Counted from the stretch's first letter, positions 3,159 through 54,436 are shown. The stretch is DNA of 64,000 nt from Candidatus Aenigmatarchaeota archaeon (GCA_043799675.1 JAZDNN010000024.1:7418-71417); one strand, 5' to 3'. Numbers and translations are program-made. The notes: a model not told the origin generated them from the sequence alone.

Positions 3159-3419
3159 TCAACGCCTGATTATCTTGGTCTCTCGCTTGGTCACGAGGGT
3201 GTCCAGTATCTGCCTCAGCTTCGCGTCGGTAATCGTTTCCTTCAACTGACCCGCCTGCATGAGCTGGAGCAGGTACAGTTCCAGCTGGCTTGCAAGCATC
3301 GGATTTGCCATCCTGACGCGGCCGAGCCTCTCGATGGCCGCATTGTCGAGTATCTTGCTGAGCATCATCTTCTTCGCGACCTCGAGGTGCATCTCATCCG
3401 CTTGGGATTCCATGTTCAT
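3159..3419 (-). CDS. PDCD5/TFAR19-like double-stranded DNA-binding protein
   Basis: 86 aa and helical, with ILDNAAIERLGRVRMANP...A.QLE..L..L resembling the archaeal PDCD5 homologue. It is conserved next to rps19e, and its start overlaps the rps19e stop by 4 nt. Confidence 0.75.
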   Translation of the reverse strand: MNMESQADEMHLEVAKKMMLSKILDNAAIERLGRVRMANPMLASQLELYLLQLMQAGQLKETITDAKLRQILDTLVTKRETKIIRR

Positions 3420-3835
3420 GCCGAAGCACCCGCAAGCCTGTCGAGCAGCTTCTGCGCCTTCGGCGTGATTACCCTGCCCTTCCTCGGCTTCTCGACCTTT
3501 GTCACGAATCCGGCAGCCTCGAGCTGCTGCAACATGAGCCTGATGAATTTCCCGCCGGTCTTCGCATGATGGGCCGGCTTGTGGCCGCGCCTGTGCCTGC
3601 CGCCGAAAGCGGTCCTGAGCCTCTGGGTCCCGACCGGACCGGTGAGGTAGATCTTCCTCAGGATTGCGGCGCTCCTGATGTACCAGAAATCGGCCTGCTC
3701 CGGCGGCCTTTCGTTGCTGACACCCGACTTCGTAAATCCGGCCGCCGGGTGCGGCTTGATGGTCTCGATCTTTTTCAGTTCAGCGGCAAGCGCCGGAATG
3801 AGCTTATCCGCCGAAACTTCCTTTGCACTTGGCAT
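3416..3835 (-). CDS. rps19e: ribosomal protein S19e
   Basis: 139 aa, with FWYIRSAAILRKIYLTGPVGTQRLRTAFGG and GRVITPKAQKLLD typical of S19e. Confidence 0.9.
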   Translation of the reverse strand: MPSAKEVSADKLIPALAAELKKIETIKPHPAAGFTKSGVSNERPPEQADFWYIRSAAILRKIYLTGPVGTQRLRTAFGGRHRRGHKPAHHAKTGGKFIRLMLQQLEAAGFVTKVEKPRKGRVITPKAQKLLDRLAGASA

Positions 3836-4223: not shown

Positions 4224-4400
4224 TGGTGCGCCGACAGGGATTCTCATAGCACTGCAACCCGAAGGCTGCCAAAACGCCTCTTGGCGCTTCGCGCTCATTT
4301 GAACCCTGGTCATCAGCTATCCTCTTTCTGGTGCAGGTCTTTGCCGTCAGGCAAAGAAGTGCCATGGAAGGCTGAGGTCCTACCACTAGACTATCGGCGC
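4224..4400 (-). tRNA. tRNA-Gly(UCC) with two BHB introns
   Basis: 177 nt.
- Acceptor: GCGCCGA/TCGGCGC.
- D arm: GTCT-AGTGGTA-GGAC.
- Anticodon stem: TCAGC/GCTGA. The loop is CUUCCAA after removing a 46-nt intron at 37/38 (4319..4364; central helix CUUC/GAGG).
- T arm: CAGGG-TTCAAAT-CCCTG after removing a 57-nt intron at 59/60 (4241..4297; central helix UUCA/UGAG, bulges AAU and AAU).
- CCA is encoded. Confidence 0.85.
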
Positions 4401-5882: not shown

Positions 5883-6046
5883 TGGTGGGGTCGGAGAGAT
5901 TTGAACTCCCGTCCGCTGGTATCACCATCGGGCAATCATCACGGTCATATTTGGCCGCTCATCGCTCCAGCAACATTCTGGAGCCAGCTATCCTGCCTGG
6001 CTTTGTCAGACGCAAGACCTAACTTGCGCCTTTAGACTACGACCCC
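5883..6046 (-). tRNA. tRNA-Trp(CCA) with two introns
   Basis: 164 nt.
- Acceptor: GGGGTCG/CGACCCC.
- Anticodon stem: GCTGG/CCAGC, loop CUCCAGA.
- Intron at 37/38: 57 nt (5921..5977).
- D-loop intron after nt 13: about 29 nt (about 6005..6033). The BHB is relaxed with one U-U mismatch, so the boundaries are approximate.
- T arm: GGGAG-TTCAAAT-CTCTC.
- CCA is encoded. Confidence 0.8.
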
Positions 6047-6116
6047 ATTGCTTTCAGAGGACGGGAGTATAAAAAGCGGAGTGGAGCCTTTAGTCTCCAC
6101 GCCACTTGCGAAACCC

Positions 6117-6123
6117 AAAAAAA
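6117..6123 (-). terminator. oligo-T tract downstream of tRNA-Thr
   Basis: T7 run on the minus strand, 8 nt after the encoded CCA of tRNA-Thr. Archaeal RNA polymerase terminates at oligo-T. Confidence 0.4.
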
Positions 6124-6130
6124 GGTGGAG

Positions 6131-6218
6131 TGGAGCCTCGGGAGGGAATTGCACCCTCGACCTGCTGTTTGCTTGGTTGCTTACAAGACAGCCGCTCTTC
6201 TGCCTGAGCCACCGAGGC
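6131..6218 (-). tRNA. tRNA-Thr(UGU) with a 12-nt mini-intron
   Basis: 88 nt.
- Acceptor: GCCTCGG/CCGAGGC.
- D arm: GCTC-AGGCAGAA-GAGC.
- Anticodon stem: GCTGT/ACAGC. The loop is CUUGUAA after removing a 12-nt intron (6170..6181; central helix CUUG/CAAG, bulges UAA and CAA).
- T arm: GAGGG-UGCAAUU-CCCTC, with an atypical G at position 55.
- CCA is encoded. Confidence 0.8.
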
Positions 6219-10898: not shown

Positions 10899-11151
10899 TG
10901 GTGTCGGGGATGGGGTTTCCAGTGAACTTCGTTCACAGTCAAGCGAACGGAGTTCCGCTTTGAACCCACGACCTCGCGATCTCTCACAGACTCATAGCTC
11001 CGCCGCAAGCGGCAAATTGCTTTTGCCACCTTCGGTGGTTAAGCGAGTCTCAAATCTCATAATCTTGTTATGAGTCGCGCGCTTTTGGTTATCGAATCTA
11101 CCAGGCTTTGCCGGCTGCATGACGCATCATGCGACCATGAGCCACCCCGAC
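10899..11151 (-). tRNA. tRNA(CAU) (elongator Met or Ile2) with four BHB introns
   Basis: 253 nt, with a mature length of 79 nt including CCA.
- Acceptor: GTCGGGG/CCCCGAC.
- D arm: GCTC-AAAGCCTGGTA-GAGC.
- Anticodon stem: CGCGA/TCGCG, loop CUCAUAA.
- T arm: GTGGG-TTCAAAC-CCCAT.
- Intron 1: 11110..11138, 29 nt, D loop after nt 13, central helix UGGC/GCCG.
- Intron 2: 11084..11097, 14 nt, D stem about 22/23, central helix UGGU/ACCA.
- Intron 3: 10981..11068, 88 nt, position 37/38, central helix CUCA/UGAG.
- Intron 4: 10916..10958, 43 nt, T loop 59/60, central helix UUCA/UGGA. Confidence 0.75.
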
Positions 11152-11182
11152 TGTTCTGATTGAATGCAAGAATTCAAATAGG

Positions 11183-11623
11183 TTAGCCAAAGCTCTCGAG
11201 GGGCGGCATTACCCGGGTGTTTCCGTCCCACAGGCCGAAATAGTTCCGGAAGAGCGGGTCATGAACCTTTGGCCTCAGTTTTCCATAATTGGTATGTCTG
11301 AATATCTTTTCGATTGCAGCAGCCTTCGCCGCCCTTTCTTTTATTTTATCCCTGCTGACGTCGAACCCGCAGACGAAGCATTTCAGGTAATAATCCGTCC
11401 CGATGGAATCCTTCCCGGTGAACACCTTCACCATGCCCAGCGGGAATTCCGACGACGGGATGCCCTCGTCCGGCCACCCGTTGGAAGGCTCCGCTTCCAG
11501 CTCGGCGGAAATCGCGTTCTTGACCATGTCGTAAACGATGCCGTTCTTTTCGTGCTTCTTGCCAACGGGCGTCAACGAGCCGCATCTCATGCAGGGGTCC
11601 TTGGTCAGCCAGTACATCAACAT
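11183..11623 (-). CDS. hypothetical zinc-ribbon protein (146 aa)
   Basis: Inner ATG at 11623, because the track ORF start at 11791 runs through tRNA-Lys. It has CMRCG...(N)...CFVCG cysteine pairs. No family recognised. Confidence 0.5.
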   Translation of the reverse strand: MLMYWLTKDPCMRCGSLTPVGKKHEKNGIVYDMVKNAISAELEAEPSNGWPDEGIPSSEFPLGMVKVFTGKDSIGTDYYLKCFVCGFDVSRDKIKERAAKAAAIEKIFRHTNYGKLRPKVHDPLFRNYFGLWDGNTRVMPPLESFG

Positions 11624-11653
11624 CGTTGTGTGAGAAAGGGATAAATCGACGAG

Positions 11654-11850
11654 TGGTGGGCCCAACGGGACTCTCGTAGCACTGCCGCGCTGGCGGCAAA
11701 AGCGCTTTTGGCGCTTCGCGCTCATTCGAACCCGCGACCTACCGGTTTCTCCAGTCACCGAACCAAAATGATGGTTCTCTTTTGGCTCCATTAAGAGCCG
11801 GTCGCTGATGGCTTGGTTTTAACCAATCTACCAGACTGAGCTATGAGCCC
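11654..11850 (-). tRNA. tRNA-Lys(CUU) with three BHB introns
   Basis: 197 nt.
- Acceptor: GGGCTCA/TGGGCCC.
- D arm: GCTC-AGTCTGGTA-GAGC.
- Anticodon stem: ACCGG/CCGGT, loop CUCUUAA.
- T arm: GCGGG-TTCGAAT-CCCGT.
- Intron 1: 11807..11827, 21 nt, D stem about 22/23, central helix UGGU/GCCA, inner hairpin UUGGUU/AACCAA.
- Intron 2: 11747..11791, 45 nt, position 37/38, central helix CUCU/GGAG.
- Intron 3: 11671..11724, 54 nt, position 59/60, central helix UUCG/CGAG.
- CCA is encoded. Confidence 0.85.
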
Positions 11851-13547: not shown

Positions 13548-14774
13548 ATGTACAGTATGAAAAACCCGAATTTGGTTGAGGCGGCCACCAAACCCGATAT
13601 AAGGTTCAACCCGAAGCGCTACACGTATAGTGTAGACCATCATTACTTCAAGATGTGGACGCCTCAAATGGCGTATATTTTAGGGTTCGTGTTTGCGGAC
13701 GGCGGAATAGAAAGGAACAATACGACCCTTGCCTTTGAGTTGCAGATGCGGGATAAAGAGATTTTACGAAAAATAAGAGCGGCTCTAAAATCTACCCATC
13801 CGATTTCAGCGACCAAAGCAGGCGAGTATGTACGATTACGGATCAATAGCCGTCAAATAGTTGACGATTTGAAGAAGCTTGGAGTAACGCATAATAAAAG
13901 CAAAGATTGCACATGTCCAGATATCCCTCAGCGGCTGTTGCCGCACTTCGTGAGAGGGTTCGTGGACGGTGATGGCTGGATTATTCAAAGAACCGGCAAT
14001 AACAGACATGAAATAAGCGCGGGTTTCTGCCATGGTTCTAAGGGGTTCCTTAGATCGCTGGTAAATCAGATTCGAGCGGCGCTTGATATCAAGGCATTTA
14101 ATCTACGGGCTAAGTATAAGGCAACTAGCAGCGGCAAGAGGTCGTGCACATATAGCATAGAATGGTATTCACACAACGCGTCGAAATTTTTAGATTGGAC
14201 ATACAAAGACGCAGACATCTTCTTGAAAAGAAAATACCAAAGCTATCTGAGAAGCAAACGGCTTTTTGAGGAGTTTTCTTCAAAAACGCGGCTTTGGAGA
14301 AAGGTCGAAACCAAACACAGAATGCCGCTAAGAGCCATCCTCGACGGCATGTTGGCCCGGGGTTCGAGCACCTGTCAGATTTCGGGGAATGTCGGAGTTT
14401 CATCGGCTACGATTTACAGGTGGTTAGACAAAACTGACATAAGGAAACCGGTGAAGAGGGTGTCCAAAGCGCCTGTTCTCATGAAGTGCCAGACCTGCGG
14501 TGACATTTTCAGAAAGTTTAAAGAAAACGCCAGCTATTGCTCACTTTCCTGTGCGGCGAAACATATGGCAGTTTCTAGATTGTCTGGGAACAACGTCACG
14601 TGCGCTGCATGCGGTAAACGTGTTTATAGGCCGAACTGGTGGTTTGCGATAAACAGTCGCGCCTTCTGTTCCAATAGTTGTCACGGGAAATGGCAAGAGA
14701 CCCGTTTGGCGACCAATTCGCTGCAACGCTGCAGGACCGATGGCCGCTTCCTTCCTGCTTCAGGGAGGCTATAG
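13548..14774 (+). CDS. free-standing double-motif LAGLIDADG endonuclease-like protein with C-terminal HTH and zinc ribbons
   Basis: 408 aa.
- Two LAGLIDADG motifs (YILGFVFADGG and FVRGFVDGDGW).
- An HTH (QISGNVGVSSATIYRWLDK).
- Two Cys clusters (CQTCG...CSLSC and CAACG...CSNSCHGKW). Confidence 0.7.
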   Translation: MYSMKNPNLVEAATKPDIRFNPKRYTYSVDHHYFKMWTPQMAYILGFVFADGGIERNNTTLAFELQMRDKEILRKIRAALKSTHPISATKAGEYVRLRINSRQIVDDLKKLGVTHNKSKDCTCPDIPQRLLPHFVRGFVDGDGWIIQRTGNNRHEISAGFCHGSKGFLRSLVNQIRAALDIKAFNLRAKYKATSSGKRSCTYSIEWYSHNASKFLDWTYKDADIFLKRKYQSYLRSKRLFEEFSSKTRLWRKVETKHRMPLRAILDGMLARGSSTCQISGNVGVSSATIYRWLDKTDIRKPVKRVSKAPVLMKCQTCGDIFRKFKENASYCSLSCAAKHMAVSRLSGNNVTCAACGKRVYRPNWWFAINSRAFCSNSCHGKWQETRLATNSLQRCRTDGRFLPASGRL

Positions 14775-17688: not shown

Positions 17689-18927
17689 ATGGTTTTAACC
17701 AAGTACGACCGCGGACTGCTGGAAATGATGTACCTGCTCACGAGGAAGCAGAGCCACATGAACCCTTCGGGGGTGGCAAGATACCTTTCCGAGCAGGGCA
17801 TACGGGTGACGGACAGGACAGTGAGGAGATGGTTCAACTACCTCCAGACGCACCGTTTCGACTACTTCCCGTACCCGAAATTCAAGGCGATGGGCCTCAC
17901 TCCCGTGTGGGTTTTCACGGATTTCAACGAAAAAATACTTGAAGCGATTCCACACAAGGTGGCAATAGTAAGCGGATTCGACCTCAGGAACCTCGAGAAA
18001 CGCCTGCTGGGCCTTTACTTGGTTCCGACGGAGCGGCTGAAGGATTTCAGTAAATTGTGGGCGGATGCCGTGGACGCAAAGGCGTTGAGCTTCTGCCAGC
18101 TGCTTGAAGTGGGCTCAATCAACTCCTTCTATTCGCCCTTCCACAAGCTGGTTGACCGTAACGGCATCGCCGACTTCGTGGATGACCACGAGCCGGACAA
18201 TTCCTACTTCACGGACATGCTGCGGAAGAGCACCGGCACGGAAAGCAGTGCCGGGATGAGCCCGCGCATATGCAAAAACCCGCTGATAATCCCGGTAATA
18301 TGGGAATCGTTCAGGAAGAACGCGTCGTCGCAGAAGATATGGAACTCGTTCGAAAGGAGGGCGGGTAAAGCCGCATGGGATTACATAAACAACCCGAAGG
18401 TGAGGAGAGAAAAGAAGACCGGATGCGGGATAAGGCACGTGCAGAACACCATGAGGGAGATGCAGGACAATTTCGGCGAGTTCTTCCAGCAGATGAGAGT
18501 GTCATACAATCCCCTGTACACGCACCACAACAGCATGTTCTATATGCTGCTGAAGCTGAAAAGAAGGGAAGACATCGTGCCGCTCTCGGAACTGCTCTCC
18601 AAACAGGCAATCTCAATCGTGGCGTACCCGCCCAGGGACGCGAAGAGCAGCCTGATGATGTACTACATCCTCACCAATGCCAAGGAAAGCGTCAATATCA
18701 TCAGCGACCTCATACAACCGTACATCGACAAGTCGTTCGACAACAGGATAATCACGGAGGACTTCAAGGGAACGGCGAAATACAGGAACCCGAACATGCG
18801 TCACTGGAAGGAGAACTACATGATGTCCTGCTACCACAAGCTGTTTGACCCCGTGACATGCACGTGGAAGTTCGATACCAAGGCGTACGCCAAAAAGCTG
18901 AACGCTGCCGGCATCAGACAGGGCTGA
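17689..18927 (+). CDS. hypothetical protein with N-terminal winged-helix/HTH
   Basis: Start taken at MVLTKYDRGLLEMMYLL (an alternative ATG lies at 17647). The N-terminal HTH is GVARYLSEQGIRVTDRTVRRWFNYL. The remaining 370 aa or so are unrecognised. Confidence 0.5.
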   Translation: MVLTKYDRGLLEMMYLLTRKQSHMNPSGVARYLSEQGIRVTDRTVRRWFNYLQTHRFDYFPYPKFKAMGLTPVWVFTDFNEKILEAIPHKVAIVSGFDLRNLEKRLLGLYLVPTERLKDFSKLWADAVDAKALSFCQLLEVGSINSFYSPFHKLVDRNGIADFVDDHEPDNSYFTDMLRKSTGTESSAGMSPRICKNPLIIPVIWESFRKNASSQKIWNSFERRAGKAAWDYINNPKVRREKKTGCGIRHVQNTMREMQDNFGEFFQQMRVSYNPLYTHHNSMFYMLLKLKRREDIVPLSELLSKQAISIVAYPPRDAKSSLMMYYILTNAKESVNIISDLIQPYIDKSFDNRIITEDFKGTAKYRNPNMRHWKENYMMSCYHKLFDPVTCTWKFDTKAYAKKLNAAGIRQG

Positions 18928-20335
18928 TGTTCTTCTCCAGCAGCTTGCAGATGAAGACGCGGAAATCCGGAGGAAGTTTTGATAGCATTGTGATAACCGG
19001 GGCACCGCTGGCAACGGTTGATTTCAAAAGGGCAGATGCTATGTGGCTCGGCATTCCTTTGCCCAAAAGAACATGCTCGGGCTGCGCAAAGAACGATTTC
19101 AGGTAATCCAGGGCGACCGTGTGTTCCCTCTCCGTTTCGGTGACCCAGCAGTCCTTCTCTATCCAGCACTTCTTCTCCCTGTAATGCTCCAAAAAGGCCT
19201 TTGCCTGCTTGTGCGACCAGATGGTCGGGCCGACGTGCTTCACCACCCGAGGAACCTGCCACACCTCGAGCTCGAACAGCAGGATGCAATCCTTTCCGTC
19301 CGCCCACACGTCCCTCCTGAGCACGCGGAATCCGCCGTCCGCCAGGAGACCTTCCAGGGAAGCGGAGGCCTTCCGCATCTGCGGCCACAGGGTATCATCC
19401 ACCAGATTCATCGGACGGTCGAACCTGACAAGGTACCAGCGGGTGCGCCTCCTTGCTATGGCTGCAGCCACTTCCTTCACGCTGTACGGCCTGGCGCGGG
19501 GAGGGAAGAACCACTTCTGATGGGGCAACAAAATGAAATCCCTGCACGCCCTGGCAAAAGCAAAGAAGCTGTCTGCCGAGACCGCCGCGGCAACGTTGCG
19601 GTTCGGGTCCACCGGATCTATCACCATCATGGGGGCGCGGAACTTCTCCAAAGCGGCCTGATAATCAACGGCCTTCCGCTCAAGGTCTATCAGGAGGCCT
19701 GCCTCCCATTTCTGCGCCTCGGCCGCGCAGCGGGCAAAACTGCCGTAATGAATGGCAAGCAACTCGCAAAGGTAGCCGGAGAAGCCCTGCGTCTTCACGT
19801 CGGCGCCATAAGCTCCTGCAGCTTTTGCGAAAGCCTTGATGAGCCTCGCGGTGTCGGACAGGTCCGGAGTGAAACGCTTCTTGATATAGGAAACGTGGTG
19901 CGGGGTCCTATCGACCGCGGACTTTATCCTCGACGGATCGGGAACGTCATACGCGGGCACGACGTCTATCGCATAATCCAGCTTTCCCGACTTCATCGAG
20001 CCGCGGAGGTAGGGATGCTCGGCATAGGCTATCTCCCACTTGCCGTTGAGGGTGGAAATTATCTTCTTCGCGAGGTCAAGCCCCTTCTTCTCAAACTCTT
20101 CCCGGCTGACGGCGGGATTGAAAAGCAGGAACAGGTCGAACTCGCGCTTTCCGGCAAGCCAGGTGCCCTTCTCCACCGAGCCGCACATCACGGGCACGGC
20201 CGTGTTTCCCGCTATCTTTGAGGCGACCTGCATCACGGCATTCACGGCCGATTGCATGGCTGACTGGTCGGAAGCGGAGGGGCGTATTTTCTTCAGAACG
20301 GAAGTAAGGACCTTCTCAACCGGCTGCGCTGGCAT
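18914..20335 (-). CDS. cca: class I (archaeal) CCA-adding tRNA nucleotidyltransferase
   Basis: Inner ATG at 20335 gives 473 aa. It has GSVEKGTWLAGKREFDLFLLF (the nucleotidyltransferase G[SG]...D.D motif), EHPYLRG, VDVVPAY and DRTPHHV. Confidence 0.85.
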   Translation of the reverse strand: MPAQPVEKVLTSVLKKIRPSASDQSAMQSAVNAVMQVASKIAGNTAVPVMCGSVEKGTWLAGKREFDLFLLFNPAVSREEFEKKGLDLAKKIISTLNGKWEIAYAEHPYLRGSMKSGKLDYAIDVVPAYDVPDPSRIKSAVDRTPHHVSYIKKRFTPDLSDTARLIKAFAKAAGAYGADVKTQGFSGYLCELLAIHYGSFARCAAEAQKWEAGLLIDLERKAVDYQAALEKFRAPMMVIDPVDPNRNVAAAVSADSFFAFARACRDFILLPHQKWFFPPRARPYSVKEVAAAIARRRTRWYLVRFDRPMNLVDDTLWPQMRKASASLEGLLADGGFRVLRRDVWADGKDCILLFELEVWQVPRVVKHVGPTIWSHKQAKAFLEHYREKKCWIEKDCWVTETEREHTVALDYLKSFFAQPEHVLLGKGMPSHIASALLKSTVASGAPVITMLSKLPPDFRVFICKLLEKNISPV

Positions 20336-20381
20336 ACCTTTAATTGACAGCCTATAAATAAAGGCTAAGGAAAGATTCGGT

Positions 20382-20813
20382 ATGCTGGTCTCGGAAGTGA
20401 TGAACAAGCGGGTCAGGACCTGCCGGAAGGACGACACTGTCCGCCAGGCAGCGCAGGAAATGAACAAGTGGCACATAGGGAGCCTGATCGTGGTGGACGG
20501 CCCGGGAAAGGTCATAGGAATAATAACGGAGAGGGACATCCTGACCGAAGTGGTGGCCAAAGGCCTGCGGAGCGATGACGTGGATGTCAAGGAAATAATG
20601 ACCGGAGACGTGATAGAGGTCGAGTCCAGTGCCACCCTTGAGGATGCGGCCGAGATAATGACACTTAAAAAAATAAAGAAGCTGCCGGTGGTGAGGAAGG
20701 GGCAACTGGTCGGCATCGTGACGGCGACCGACCTGATAATGTACGAGCATTCGCTGATAGAAAAAGTGTCAACCCTGCTGCAGACCGGAAAAAAGGCCGC
20801 TGTGTGCGGCTAA
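20382..20813 (+). CDS. CBS-domain pair protein
   Basis: 143 aa with two CBS motifs (VIGIITERDIL and LVGIVTATDLI). Confidence 0.8.
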   Translation: MLVSEVMNKRVRTCRKDDTVRQAAQEMNKWHIGSLIVVDGPGKVIGIITERDILTEVVAKGLRSDDVDVKEIMTGDVIEVESSATLEDAAEIMTLKKIKKLPVVRKGQLVGIVTATDLIMYEHSLIEKVSTLLQTGKKAAVCG

Positions 20814-50210: not shown

Positions 50211-51795
50211 ATGGAGCAGGAACCTGAAAAGCAGACAGGCAGTCTGCCGAAGGAAATCAAGAAAATCAGCGAGGTCGTCTGGGAACTGCCCACCAGCTAC
50301 AAGAAAGGCATGCGCGTGCCGGCAAGAATATATGCGACCAAGAAGCTGCTCGATGCGATGGACGCGGGAGTGTTCGAGCAGGTCACCAACGTCGCGACCC
50401 TGCCGGGAATCGTCAAGCATGCGTTCTGTATGCCGGATGGGCACTGGGGTATGGGTCAAGTCGCGGCTTGATTCACTCAAATATGGGTTCCCAATCGGCG
50501 GCGTGGCTGCATTCGACCCGAAGGTCGGCGTGATCAGCCCGGGCGGCATCGGGTTCGACATCAACTGCGGCATGAGGTTCGTCACTACCAACCTTACTGT
50601 CAAGGACGTCAAACCCAAGCTGAAAGAACTGGTGGATATCCTGTTCAGGACGGTTCCCGCGGGCGTGGGCGGGGAAGGGTTTGTAAAATTAAGCCGCAGC
50701 CAATTCGACGAAATAATGGTCCAAGGGGCCAATTGGGTCATCGAGCACGGCTACGGTTGGAAAGAGGACACGGAAAGAATAGAGGAGTACGGCTGCATCA
50801 AAGGTGCTGATCCGTCAAAGGTCAGCGACAAGGCAAGGACCAGAGGCATCACGCAGATGGGGACGCTCGGCTCAGGGAACCATTACCTGGAAATCCAGAC
50901 TGCCGAGAAAATTTTCCTTCCCGAAGTCGCAGAGGCATTCGGCGTGAACGAACAGGGGCAGATAGGGGTGATGGTGCACTGCGGCTCGAGGGGGTTCGGC
51001 CACCAAATCGGAACGGATTATCTCAGGATATTCGACATGGCAATGAAGAAGTACAACATCACGGTGCCTGACAGGGAGCTTGCCTGTGCGCCTTTTGCGA
51101 GCCAGGAAGGACAGGATTATTATCACGCGATGGCCTGCGCGGCAAACATGGCTTTTGCCAACAGGCAGGTGATTTTGCACAGGATACGCGAGGCTTTTGC
51201 AAAGGTGTTCAGGAAATCCCCCGAAGACATGGAAATGCACCTGGTGTACGATGTCGCGCACAACGTGGCCAAGGTGGAGAAACACCTGGTCGACGGTCAT
51301 GAAAAGGAACTGGTGATGCACCGGAAGGGGAGCACGCGCTGCTTCGGTCCGGGTAGGCCGGAGATTCCTGAAGCTTACCGCAAGGTCGGCCAGCCGGTGA
51401 TTGTGGGCGGCAGCATGGAAACGGGCAGCTTTTTGTGCGTGGGCACGGACAAGGCTCTGACAGAAACATGGGGAAGCACCATGCACGGCGCGGGCAGAAC
51501 CATGAGCAGGACTTCAGCGAGGAACCAGGGCTCGGGCTTGGCGTTGCAGAAGAAGATGGCCAAGGAAGGGATACTGGTGGAAGCCACGAGCATGAGCGGG
51601 CTTGCAGAGGAAGCGGGCTTTGCCTACAAGGACCTGAACGAAGTGGTCGAGACCATGGAAATCGCGGGCGTGAGCAGGAAGGTCGTTCTGCTGAGGCCTT
51701 TGGGTAATATTAAAGGCACCGCCCGGGCCTCATACAGCCTTTTAGCTTTCCCCATACTTGTCATGGTCTTGGCCTTGATTTCGTCCCTTATCTGA
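50211..51795 (+). CDS. rtcB: RNA-splicing ligase RtcB, coding sequence interrupted by a 31-nt BHB intron (exon 1 50211..50450, exon 2 50482..51795)
   Basis: - Exon 1 (80 aa) ends ...LPGIVKHAFCMPDGHWG.
- Exon 2, in another frame, starts YGFPIGGVAAFD...GGIGFDINCGMR, and HCGSRGFGHQ and further motifs follow.
- Joining at 50450/50482 recreates the universal MPD.H.GYGF.IGG motif.
- Unspliced, the first frame stops at 50469-50471 after 86 aa.
- The C-terminus carries a hydrophobic extension of about 25 aa after the usual ...IKG end. Confidence 0.85.
50451..50481 (+). other. predicted bulge-helix-bulge (BHB) intron within the rtcB mRNA
   Basis: - Central helix: UGGG (50445-48) / CUCA (50476-79).
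- Bulges: GUA (50449-51) and AAU (50480-82), each 3 nt.
- Inner helix: 9 bp, UGGGUCAAG/CUUGAUUCA, with loop UCGCGG.
- Cleavage after the 2nd bulge nucleotide on each side removes exactly the 31 nt needed to restore the frame. Confidence 0.75.
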
Positions 51796-52859
51796 ACGAT
51801 AAGCGGTTCGACCTGTTTCCACCTCGTGATGTTCTTGCCGATTATTTCGAGAATCAATTCCTTTTTGGCCGTTTTCTCGGGATGCCTCAACGGCAGCAAT
51901 TCGAGCATCCGACGGACATCGGCCTTCCTGAAGATTTCTAAGGCGAAATAATCCTTGCTGTATCTTATACTGACCCCATGAGTGTCTCTGCCGTCCCCGC
52001 GCCTGAAAATCCTGTATAGAATTGGATTAAAGCCCTGTTCCCTTAGTTGCCGTTTTATCCTACCAAGCAAGGTTTTATTTTCGGTGCCTATCCGCATACA
52101 ACACTGCAAATTTTCCCTGATTTTCTTGACCAGAAGCGACCCTTCCGCATCGAAGTAGCCGGCCAGGAACGACAGGAAAACATTCCGTTCGGATTCGACC
52201 AACTCTGAAATCAATCGTTTCCTGTTTTCCAGCAAGAGGAAGTCGAAGCTGTTGTCGAGGTCTGCGGATGTCGTCCACATGTAATTTCCAAAAGTTCTGT
52301 TCTTCGCAGGATATGTCCTTACCTTCGCATATCCTTTGAACAGGCTCTCGAAGACATCCAGGAATCCTTCATGAGTCGTGTTGGTTATGGCCCGAATGGT
52401 ATGCTTCGATCTTCTGAAGGCTGTCACATCACCCTCCACGAAACCAACCATGTAAGCCTTTTCTTCATCCTTTCCATCAAAACTTTGCCGTTCATGTTTC
52501 CTGTTTGTCAGCAGGATAGCCTCATCGTTTCCACGCACCCGAAAGCCGTTTTCTTCCAGCACCTTATGCAACGTGCCTTTGGAAGAACCAAATTTCTTGG
52601 CCAGCTTTTTCAACGATATTTTCTCCGTGTCATAAAGTCTCAGAATTTCCGTCACAGGCAGGTGTTTCCTGTGAGACAACGAATGTGCCTGACTGAGATT
52701 CCTTATCGGTATGTCAAGTTTGATGAACCGTTTTCTTACGGCCGACCACGATATATCGTCTCCGAGCTTAACACTCAATATCGCCGCCACTTCTTTGAAC
52801 GTCTTACCGGACGAATAGAGACTCTCGGCTTCCTTCAGGAGTTCGCTGTTCAGCTTCAT
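51624..52859 (-). CDS. LAGLIDADG endonuclease-like protein with N-terminal HTH domains
   Basis: 411 aa. There are two N-terminal HTH-like segments (GKTFKEVAAIL and ISLKKLAKKFGSSKGTLHKVL), then LAGLIDADG motifs (YMVGFVEGDVT and FLSFLAGYFDAEGS). It lies directly downstream of the DGR RT. Its last 172 nt overlap the 3' end of rtcB on the opposite strand. Confidence 0.65.
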   Translation of the reverse strand: MKLNSELLKEAESLYSSGKTFKEVAAILSVKLGDDISWSAVRKRFIKLDIPIRNLSQAHSLSHRKHLPVTEILRLYDTEKISLKKLAKKFGSSKGTLHKVLEENGFRVRGNDEAILLTNRKHERQSFDGKDEEKAYMVGFVEGDVTAFRRSKHTIRAITNTTHEGFLDVFESLFKGYAKVRTYPAKNRTFGNYMWTTSADLDNSFDFLLLENRKRLISELVESERNVFLSFLAGYFDAEGSLLVKKIRENLQCCMRIGTENKTLLGRIKRQLREQGFNPILYRIFRRGDGRDTHGVSIRYSKDYFALEIFRKADVRRMLELLPLRHPEKTAKKELILEIIGKNITRWKQVEPLIVQIRDEIKAKTMTSMGKAKRLYEARAVPLILPKGLSRTTFLLTPAISMVSTTSFRSL

Positions 52860-52914: not shown

Positions 52915-53991
52915 CTAATCATGCAGAATACATCCAAAAATATTATTATACCTTCCAGCGAGCGCATTTCTCAACCTGAACGTGTCGCCCTGCGCCGCAT
53001 AGGCCATCCAGCCCTCAAGGCTTTTCGCAGCCTGTTCTGCCGAAATCTCACCGGATTCGTACTGCAGTCTGAGTGCCGTCATCCTTTTTTCGAGCTTCAG
53101 CAGGTTCCTCCTTTTTGGAATCCTGTAGTGGTAGAACACCCTGAAGCCGAGCAACGATATCCCCTTATGCAAAGGGTAGACCTGCGATTTTTCCTCATGC
53201 AACTCTAGCTTTAACCGTTGTTTGAGGAACCCGTTTATCCCGCTCCTGAACTGCATCAGCGCGGCCTCAGACCTGTCCAGAATCACGAAGTCATCTACAT
53301 ACCGGAGATAGAACCTTGCCTTAAGCACGTGCTTCACGAAATGGTCCAGCTCATTCAGGTAGACGTTCGCGAAGAACTGGCTCGTCTGATTGCCTATCGG
53401 CATCCCCTTCGGCAGGGCAGGGTCGTTGTTCGACAGGATTTTCCGTACCAGCCAGAGCACGCTTTCGTCCCTTATTTTTCTCCGTATGATGCCAATCAGG
53501 ACATCGTGGTCGACGCTCGGGAAATAGTGCCTTATGTCGGCCTTCAGTGCATAGCCGACCACCATGTTGTTGTCCTTCGCGCCGTGCACCAAACGGCCGT
53601 TCCCGGAAACCTTTCGCTTGAAGCAATCAAACCTGTCCAATGCTGCCAGGCCGCCCTTTCCCTTCCTGTTGGCGTAGCTGTCGTGGATGAACGTTTTGTC
53701 GAAAATCGGTTCGAGCACGTTGCATAACGCATGATGGACAACACGGTCCCTGAAATGCGAGGCATGAATTACCCGTGTCTTGGGGTCGCGGATGATGAAC
53801 CGTTTCAACGGGCGCGGCGAATACGTACGATTTTCAAGCTCAGTTTTCAAATCTGCCAATTCGCCATCAAGATTAGCTTCGAATCTTTTGACATACCATT
53901 TCTTCGACTTGCCCTTCCTCGCCTTTCTGAATGCCAGCAAAAGGTTCTCTGGCGAGCAGACCTTTCCGTAAAGGTTGTCAAATGTTTTCAA
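52915..53991 (-). CDS. DGR-type reverse transcriptase
   Basis: 358 aa with an apparent TTG start. RT motifs 1-7 include RVIHASHFRDRVVHHAL, the DGR-diagnostic PIGNQTSQFFANVYLNELD (I/LGxxxSQ) and the catalytic YLRYVDDFVIL. It has no maturase or endonuclease domains, and it sits 30 nt downstream of the TR. Confidence 0.85.
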   Translation of the reverse strand: MKTFDNLYGKVCSPENLLLAFRKARKGKSKKWYVKRFEANLDGELADLKTELENRTYSPRPLKRFIIRDPKTRVIHASHFRDRVVHHALCNVLEPIFDKTFIHDSYANRKGKGGLAALDRFDCFKRKVSGNGRLVHGAKDNNMVVGYALKADIRHYFPSVDHDVLIGIIRRKIRDESVLWLVRKILSNNDPALPKGMPIGNQTSQFFANVYLNELDHFVKHVLKARFYLRYVDDFVILDRSEAALMQFRSGINGFLKQRLKLELHEEKSQVYPLHKGISLLGFRVFYHYRIPKRRNLLKLEKRMTALRLQYESGEISAEQAAKSLEGWMAYAAQGDTFRLRNALAGRYNNIFGCILHD

Positions 53992-54162: not shown

Positions 54163-54436
54163 CTCGTCCGTGTTCCAATCCGACCTGACGGAAGGGTTTC
54201 GGTAGCCTCTCCACCGACATGACACCGCGGCTTCAATCTTCGGGAACCTACCAACTGAAACCGCTGAATTTAATGGCACAAGCATTCGGACGGCATGAAA
54301 TGCCATCGCACCATCTTGCGCTCTATGGAAAGGCGTATAGCGCGGGCCTTTGCCGGGAGAATGAAATACCCGCCCCCCGATTGGGAAGGAAAGAACTCTG
54401 TCATGCAAAAATTGAGGGACGAAACGATTTATGCGC

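Follow-up and report, generated by a model that had tools for sequence, protein, structure and literature searches.

A putative methionine-type tRNA gene split by four short archaeal-type introns in a Candidatus Aenigmatarchaeota genome

In a stretch of 64,000 nucleotides (nt) from an uncultivated archaeon of the Candidatus Aenigmatarchaeota, a DPANN lineage (GCA_043799675.1 JAZDNN010000024.1:7418-71417; this whole stretch is called the window below), we find a locus on the minus strand that, as read from its sequence, appears to be a methionine-type tRNA gene split by four short introns of the archaeal type. The gene is 253 nt long, runs from its 5′ end at 11151 to its 3′ end at 10899 and encodes its CCA. 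We regard it as probable that this is a functional elongator-type tRNA(CAU) gene with four protein-spliced introns of the bulge-helix-bulge (BHB) type, lying at tRNA positions 14/15, 22/23, 37/38 and 59/60, and we infer its transcription, processing and Met identity. The gene structure, the motifs and the existence of orthologues that lack individual inserts are observed directly. An earlier note on this DNA had proposed that the gene reduces to a normal cloverleaf once four segments are taken out, and so it does: ARAGORN folds the 79-nt product of the note's four segments as a perfect tRNA-Met(CAT) cloverleaf, and it accepts the 77-nt product that is left with the boundaries used here.

Structure of the tRNA(CAU) gene and its orthologues

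Unspliced, the gene escapes both ARAGORN and Rfam when these are run over the whole window. The single tRNA that ARAGORN reports there is a tRNA-Thr at 6131-6218, and Rfam at its gathering thresholds returns this same tRNA-Thr plus an RT-16 RNA; at a permissive E-value, Rfam gives no tRNA or C/D-box match for the intron-rich genes between 4100 and 12100. A signature scan, which looks for a 7-bp acceptor stem, U8, a T stem adjoining the acceptor 3′ strand and NCCA, is independent of interruptions in the D arm, anticodon and T loop. Applied to the window, it identifies five tRNA genes, all on the minus strand, all encoding CCA and all bearing introns. Together they hold 12 introns, or 2.4 per gene. 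Four of the five are missed by ARAGORN and Rfam, and ARAGORN calls all five spliced products.

The tRNA(CAU) gene has five exons, of 14, 9, 15, 22 and 17 nt, all read from the minus strand. Exon 1 (11138-11151, tRNA nt 1-14), the same in all nine of the orthologues described below, supplies the acceptor 5′ strand, U8 and G9, the D stem 5′ strand and A14. It is followed by intron 1, of 31 nt (11107-11137), at 14/15. The 9 nt of exon 2, GCCUGGUAG (11098-11106, nt 15-22), make up the remaining D loop and G22 and lead into intron 2, of 14 nt (11084-11097), at 22/23. Exon 3 (11069-11083, nt 23-37) carries the D stem 3′ strand, G26, the anticodon stem 5′ strand and CUCAUA. Next comes the longest insert, the 88-nt intron 3 (10981-11068), at the canonical 37/38 site. 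Exon 4 (10959-10980, nt 38-59) contributes the anticodon stem 3′ strand, the variable loop, the T stem 5′ strand and UUCAAA; intron 4, of 43 nt (10916-10958), interrupts the T loop at 59/60; and exon 5 (10899-10915, nt 60-76) completes the tRNA with C60, the T stem 3′ strand, the acceptor 3′ strand, A73 and CCA.

All four junctions follow one geometric rule, in which the two strands of the central helix H, H(a) and H(b), end 2 nt before the 5′ cut and 2 nt before the 3′ cut, respectively, and each cut falls between the second and third nucleotides of a 3-nt bulge. All 12 introns in the window's five tRNA genes obey it, including the five canonical 37/38 introns, with H paired 4/4 in nine of them and 3/4 in three. 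Introns 2, 3 and 4 of the tRNA(CAU) gene have two 3-nt bulges and full 4/4 helices, and intron 1 has 3/4 with a closed 5′ bulge. In intron 2, UGGU pairs with ACCA between the bulges AG|A and AA|A. Intron 3 is of the hBHBh′ type, with H CUCA/UGAG, bulges UA|A and AG|A, an outer helix of 5 bp (the anticodon stem) and an inner helix of 2 bp. Intron 4 is of the hBH type, with H UUCA/UGGA, bulges AA|G and AA|C and a 5-bp outer helix (the T stem). When the inserts were shuffled, 4/4 H pairing in the permitted registers was reached with P = 0.08 for intron 2, 0.023 for intron 3 and 0.033 for intron 4. For these three introns, the lengths, sites, 4-bp helices and 3-nt bulges given in the earlier note are as we find them, and the helices that it quoted for all four introns (UGGC/GCCG, UGGU/ACCA, CUCA/UGAG and UUCA/UGGA) are literally present, with four of four pairs in the right register.

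What fixes the insert boundaries to the nucleotide is a series of orthologues. A metagenome scan with exon 4 as the query (22 nt plus one discriminating base) returned nine contigs, L013-L021, all of which encode this tRNA and have inserts at one or two of the window's sites. Two of them (L019 and L020) have intron 3 only; six, forming the pairs L013/L017, L014/L018 and L016/L021, have introns 1 and 3; L015 has introns 3 and 4; and the window has all of introns 1, 2, 3 and 4. Wherever an insert is lacking, the orthologue gives the uninterrupted tRNA exactly. Thus every orthologue reads GGUAGAGCG without interruption at the site of intron 2, an insert missing from all nine, and the 77-nt spliced product of the window equals the exons of L020 exactly. 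Rfam RF00005 scores L019 at 52.2 bits and L020 at 54.8 bits, where the gathering score is 29. With its four inserts, the window's gene thus falls among tRNA genes with two or more introns. Intron 3 is found in every orthologue, at 38-91 nt, with H(b) and both bulges invariant. At the site of intron 4, L015, which is syntenic with the window at ~80% nucleotide identity across ~9 kb, has an unrelated 87-nt intron that also ends in UGGA-AA and has an inner helix of 4 bp.

The identity of exon 4 among the orthologues is by construction, because it was the search pattern. Beyond that pattern, the 55 remaining exon nucleotides are identical in all contigs except at position 25 (C/U); that the exons are kept while introns and flanks diverge points to purifying selection. 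A protein query with the neighbouring geranylgeranyl reductase retrieved no relative from the GTDB species representatives, and a 21-mer of exon 4, run against the genome collection, matched only a Bathyarchaeota tRNA-Pro and a Terriglobia tRNA and no orthologue, so that exon 4 occurs in a tRNA(CAU) context in none of the GTDB species representatives. Homologues of the adjacent YdjC-like gene (62-66% identity) lie in other gene contexts, with no tRNA-Met close by.

Two side observations concern this gene family. Intron 3 of every orthologue contains, 5-7 nt from its 5′ end, a conserved UUAUGAG that complements the anticodon loop and is followed, after 2 nt, by UCGA or UUGA; it is separate from the UGAG of the BHB helix. 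Read speculatively as a box-D′-like element, it would point to C34 by the N+5 rule; no box C is seen in intron 3 of the window or of L013-L021. Secondly, a conserved 17-mer, GTGTCGCCCGACACCAA, lies downstream of tRNA-Met, at a distance of about 55 nt, in L013 (~3300-3320), in L017, which is identical to L013, and in L019 (~850-870). It repeats the 3′ end of the tRNA (CCCGACACCA), and the window has no copy; one possibility is that the 17-mer was left behind by an integration (att-like) duplication, another that it is a palindromic site.

As to the identity of the tRNA, ARAGORN was run on all 16 subsets of removed introns and called tRNA-Met with all four out, or with introns 1, 2 and 4 out, the latter because it tolerates an anticodon-loop intron. 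With the boundaries of intron 1 used here, it also calls a 74-nt tRNA-Met when introns 1, 2 and 3 are removed and intron 4 is kept. Archaeal initiators were taken to be those with A1:U72 and an anticodon stem that contains the three G:C pairs G29-31:C39-41. This tRNA has G1:C72, and its anticodon stem is C27 G28 C29 G30 A31 / U39 C40 G41 C42 G43, with no GGG/CCC; it is therefore not an initiator, as the earlier note had argued. The further claim that Met and Ile2 are inseparable from sequence goes too far, since the covariance models that tRNAscan-SE 2.0 has for each isotype separate both in archaea, with an estimated misclassification of 0.4%. The literature searched gave nothing usable on archaeal TiaS identity rules that separate Ile2 from Met. 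Our lean towards elongator Met over Ile2 is a presumption drawn from resemblance (the G-CGGGGUGGCUCA start and G9).

Alternative readings and the boundaries of intron 1

Several points weigh against a functional gene with four introns. Intron 2 is the weakest of the four: it is present only in this metagenome-assembled genome (MAG), its H helix has the shuffling P of 0.08 given above, and its flanking helices come to 1 bp on each side, too little to count as flanking helices proper. Intron 1 has an H helix with just three standard pairs. In the ViennaRNA ensemble, the H helices of introns 1, 3 and 4 form with P < 0.1; because the universally conserved canonical intron 3 is among these, free-RNA folding is uninformative on BHB formation. 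No EndA (PF01974-type) was found among the ~45 open reading frames (ORFs) scanned in the window, which is part of the genome, and a second, intron-poor tRNA(CAU) copy may lie elsewhere in the genome, beyond the 64 kb.

The rival that survives best, which we nevertheless judge unlikely, builds on the first of these points and holds that the locus is a decaying copy, or pseudogene, descended from a real tRNA gene. Splicing would have been lost for one insert or more, the 14-nt intron 2 being the most plausible, so that the locus would yield no functional tRNA and another copy would serve the cell. Besides being unique to this MAG and without flanking helices, intron 2 looks related to, but shorter than, the 22/23 intron in the window's tRNA-Lys gene, and its chance probability is not extreme. 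However, the exons are intact and identical to those of the orthologues, and intron 2 has an H helix with all four pairs in exact register, whose pair probability in the ViennaRNA ensemble is 0.84-0.98 in every intermediate, making it the most stable predicted element of the precursor. The 12-nt canonical-site intron of tRNA-Thr likewise has a one-pair inner helix, though the 5 bp of the anticodon stem, its outer helix, are intact. It also counts against a pseudogene that redundant tRNA genes are rarely kept in DPANN genomes, and the signature scan finds no other tRNA(CAU) in the 64-kb window.

A second question is where intron 1 begins and ends. The earlier note had recognised an insert in the D loop, which stands, and had delimited it as 29 nt at 13/14 (11110-11138); comparison with the orthologues moves it to 31 nt at 14/15, a revision in which we have high confidence. 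Intron 1 is absent from L015, L019 and L020, and variants of it occur in L013/L017, L014/L018 and L016/L021. Relative to the orthologues without it, which read GCUCAGCCUGG, the insert is 31 nt (32 nt in L013), so only the removal of 31 nt restores the conserved tRNA, and the mature tRNA has 77 nt rather than 79. In the exon sum of 13+12+15+22+17 that the note had given, the last three terms are retained and the first two become 14+9.

With these boundaries, intron 1 takes the relaxed HBh′ form, a type described before (PMC6379350). Its H helix joins G10 C11 U12 to G G C, with an additional G9.A (or G.G) mismatch; the 5′ bulge, C13 A14|U, is a closed 3-nt bulge, and the 3′ bulge is AA|G15. There is no outer helix. 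The inner helix, GGUCGCAUGA/UCAUGCAGCC, begins right after the 5′ bulge and abuts H(b), and in the window it stacks nine of ten pairs, with P = 0.0007 under shuffling. Across the four variants of intron 1, 94% of its cells are paired and three pairs show compensatory change; when the partner columns were slid as a control, 25-37% were paired.

The original 29-nt delimitation, through UGGC/GCCG at 13/14, would give a 79-nt tRNA with an 11-nt D loop, AAAGCCUGGUA. In the window alone, it looks attractive, as all four pairs of the helix form in the correct register, flanked by 3-nt bulges, and ARAGORN accepts the product (7-bp acceptor stem, A73, encoded CCA). It conflicts, however, with the GCUCAGCCUGG of the orthologues lacking intron 1 and leaves two extra A in the D loop; in L014/L018, the 13/14 cut would put G at the invariant position A14. 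Its fourth pair (11:38) is broken in three of the four distinct sequences that bear intron 1, and it draws on C38 and C39, which are part of the covarying hairpin. The 79-nt product would also have six nucleotides between A14 and G18 and lose the G15:C48 pair. On this evidence, we think the 29-nt version quite improbable and retain 31 nt at 14/15. Two further candidates were rejected: removing 31 nt with a 13/14 cut gives none of the four H pairs, and a D loop of 13 nt would result from the helix GGCU/AGCC, which appears in the minimum-free-energy fold.

The earlier note had named beforehand, as fatal to its model, an alternative fold that needs fewer introns and still gives a canonical cloverleaf, and the 16 subsets offer one candidate. 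With intron 4 alone removed, ARAGORN reports a tRNA-Leu(GAG) with one 122-nt intron, the only competing model of the series. That tRNA would have a D stem of 2 pairs, two G.U pairs in the anticodon stem and an unstructured variable region of 14 nt, and its intron would lie inside the anticodon (35/36) with no BHB. It also needs intron-1 sequence that is missing from L015, L019 and L020, which carry the same conserved gene, and the orthologue comparison thus rules it out; we give tRNA-Leu(GAG) almost no credence. Just as hard to credit is the idea that the inserts are not EndA introns at all but introns of group I or II that splice themselves, inert scars of insertion or artefacts of assembly: archaeal genes are known to contain group I introns (PMC6125680) and nothing more specific speaks for it, whereas inserts of 14-88 nt are far too short for group I or II and match no Rfam intron family, and homologous inserts recur at the same sites, with conserved BHB nucleotides, in independent assemblies from several metagenomes.

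Proposed processing and other elements of the window

If the gene is processed as its motifs suggest, the precursor would be transcribed from an A/T-rich element ~25 nt upstream. A promoter-like candidate, CTATTTGAATTC (11170-11181, minus strand; -30 to -19 of the tRNA(CAU) gene), matches in its distance the GCTTTTAATACTCC-type elements that lie upstream of the four remaining tRNA genes and is conserved in L015. At each exon-intron pair, EndA would recognise the 4-bp helix with its flanking 3-nt bulges and cut after the second bulge nucleotide on each strand, at eight sites altogether. RtcB would then join the 2′,3′-cyclic phosphate and 5′-OH ends in four ligations, and four such rounds would yield the 77-nt tRNA with its CCA already encoded. 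Exon 2 has just 9 nt and is tethered mainly by UGGU/ACCA, so introns 1 and 2 would probably go through cleavage and ligation in turn, and not with every site cleaved before ligation begins. The presumed exon ligase, an RtcB tRNA-splicing ligase, is encoded in the window at 50332-51795 on the plus strand (Pfam PF01139, E = 3.6e-157). The window's proteins also include an archaeal digeranylgeranylglycerophospholipid-reductase-like protein, a class I CCA-adding enzyme and ArgRS.

The other four tRNA genes, all on the minus strand, repeat the architecture of the tRNA(CAU) gene in several respects. The tRNA-Gly(UCC) gene (4224-4400, 177 nt) has introns of 46 nt at 37/38 and 57 nt at 59/60; tRNA-Trp(CCA) (5883-6046, 164 nt), of 31 nt at 14/15 and 57 nt at 37/38; tRNA-Thr(UGU) (6131-6218), of 12 nt at 37/38; and tRNA-Lys(CUU) (11654-11850, 197 nt), of 21 nt at 22/23, 45 nt at 37/38 and 54 nt at 59/60. 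The 14/15 intron of tRNA-Trp ends CAAA|GCC, has three of four H pairs and a 9-bp inner helix, and is built like Met intron 1. The 22/23 intron of tRNA-Lys, with H UGGU/GCCA and a 5-bp inner helix, occupies the same site as Met intron 2, which resembles a shortened form of it. The T-loop introns at 59/60 of tRNA-Gly (4241-4297) and tRNA-Lys (11671-11724; ~4965-5020 in L015) are clearly homologous, with their first 17 nt and roughly their last dozen in common and with compensating changes in the second hairpin, where they differ. This homology suggests the transfer of introns between tRNA genes.

Among close relatives, intron presence varies at every non-canonical site, and the boundaries of the shared-site introns in these other genes are confirmed by orthologues without them. 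L018 has a tRNA-Gly with no introns (6111-6184), a tRNA-Thr with none and a tRNA-Trp with one, the 14/15 intron being absent; the tRNA-Lys of L015 has two introns and lacks that at 22/23. It is conceivable, and we put it forward tentatively, that tRNA introns are being gained in this lineage in an active burst, through their transfer from one tRNA gene to another. Candidates for such transfers are the T-loop intron (Lys/Gly), the 22/23 intron (Lys/Met) and the 14/15 architecture (Met/Trp). Sister populations in the same sediment metagenomes keep empty sites, so gain events should be reconstructable nucleotide by nucleotide.

Further observations concern single genes. The canonical intron of tRNA-Trp contains GUGAUGA and CGAUGAG, which are box-C-like, as well as CUGGAG, which complements the anticodon loop; it recalls the box C/D guide of euryarchaeal tRNA-Trp introns. 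Rfam matches this tRNA-Trp weakly, as a tmRNA, and ARAGORN miscalls the L018 orthologue as a tRNA-Ser. The 12-nt intron of tRNA-Thr is missing from the L018 orthologue (2765-2840). In both the window and L018, this tRNA has the T loop UGCAAUU, with G at position 55, and an atypical D loop, AGGCAGAA; position 55 of tRNA is near-universally U or pseudouridine. ARAGORN also misses tRNA-Lys orthologues in L013 (~3560-3790), L014 (~2790-2965) and L016 (~1190-1370), in which the anticodon-region insert is longer than in the window, and a tRNA-Ile(GAU)-like gene with a D-arm insert at ~4040-4145 of the relative L006. A mechanically called ORF at 11183-11791 overlaps the tRNA-Lys gene, so the real coding sequence probably starts near 11620.

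Elsewhere in the window, the RT-16 RNA (Rfam, 57.2 bits; 54197-54373, minus strand) lies directly upstream of an ORF of 358 aa (52915-53991, minus strand) with a reverse transcriptase (RT) domain (RVT_1, E = 3e-16), giving an RT-associated structured RNA in a DPANN genome (52915-54373). The ORF for the CCA-adding enzyme (18914-20716, minus strand) encodes 600 aa, with Pfam domains from residue 288 on; possible explanations for its long or unrecognised N-terminal part are an insertion, an intein or a mis-set start. LAGLIDADG_3 domains occur in two free-standing ORFs of ~410 aa, at 13548-14774 (plus strand) and 51624-52859 (minus strand), the second of which runs antisense to rtcB and overlaps its 3′ end. 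Similar ORFs also adjoin the YdjC homologue in L006-L008.

Comparison with known intron-rich tRNA genes

Two or three introns per tRNA gene is the number given in reviews up to 2019-2021 and in the tRNAscan-SE 2.0 paper, and one review states "a maximum of three". The earlier note had called four introns exceptional, a view that has since become outdated. Supplementary Data 4 of Valentin-Alvarado et al. 2024 tabulates Freyarchaeia genes for Arg-TCT and Ile2-CAT with four introns by tRNAscan-SE and four by R2DT, and also lists, with the two counts in the same order, Freyarchaeia Leu-GAG (3/4) and, as candidates in Atabeyarchaeia, Atabeyarchaeia-2 Trp (3/4) and Lys-TTT (4/3) (PMC11291895). Four introns are thus not a record. 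In Atabeyarchaeia and Freyarchaeia, 92-95% of tRNA genes have introns, over half of them several (PMC11291895), with 228 introns in three genomes of roughly 40 tRNA genes each. A four-intron tRNA gene is therefore rare and new for the present group, not unprecedented.

Within DPANN, the superphylum to which the Aenigmatarchaeota belong, disrupted tRNA genes are known from Nanoarchaeum, which has split tRNAs, and from ARMAN-2 Candidatus Micrarchaeum, which has non-canonical introns and an epsilon2 EndA (PMC3239211, PMC5829648). Kaneta et al. 2018 found that broad-specificity EndA in DPANN correlates with more tRNA disruption and with incompletely predictable tRNA sets (PMC5829648). The literature we searched describes no four-intron tRNA genes in DPANN and no tRNA introns in Aenigmatarchaeota, and the gene described here would extend the documented range of four-intron tRNAs from Asgard archaea to DPANN. 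Its main value lies in the lineage-wide picture of 12 introns in five genes, alleles with empty sites and annotation blind spots. The failure of standard tools on four of the five tRNA genes bears on the "missing tRNA" problem in estimates of DPANN genome completeness. Natural alleles with one, two and four introns fix the splice boundaries and are usable for following the gain, shortening and loss of BHB introns, and they could show the smallest exon (9 nt) and the most minimal BHB (intron 2) that the machinery of this lineage tolerates.

The closest likeness in architecture is to those tRNA genes of Thermoproteales that have several introns (Sugahara et al. 2008; Tocchini-Valentini et al. 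2009; reviews: PMC4033280, PMC6379350). There, too, BHB and relaxed hBH/HBh′ introns occupy the D arm and T loop as well as the canonical 37/38 site, similar introns recur in different tRNA genes, a pattern ascribed to intron transposition (Fujishima et al. 2010; PMC4033280), and the genes escape standard tRNA finders. In contrast, the stated maximum in Thermoproteales is three introns per gene, against four here, and the hosts are crenarchaeal rather than DPANN. Thermoproteales average 0.84 introns per gene, whereas this window has 12 in five; at 2.4 per gene, its density would exceed both that figure and those for Atabeyarchaeia and Freyarchaeia. In the eukaryote C. merolae, too, BHB-like motifs accompany tRNA introns of the D stem, the 37/38 site and the T loop (2013, PMC3728597); its maximum is three, and its stepwise processing has been shown by reverse transcription PCR, whereas the gene reported here is read from sequence. 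The Asgard Freyarchaeia and Atabeyarchaeia share four-intron genes with this lineage and belong to a different phylum. Their four-intron cases stand in a supplementary table without orthologue-based delimitation, whereas here natural intron-less alleles bracket the introns.

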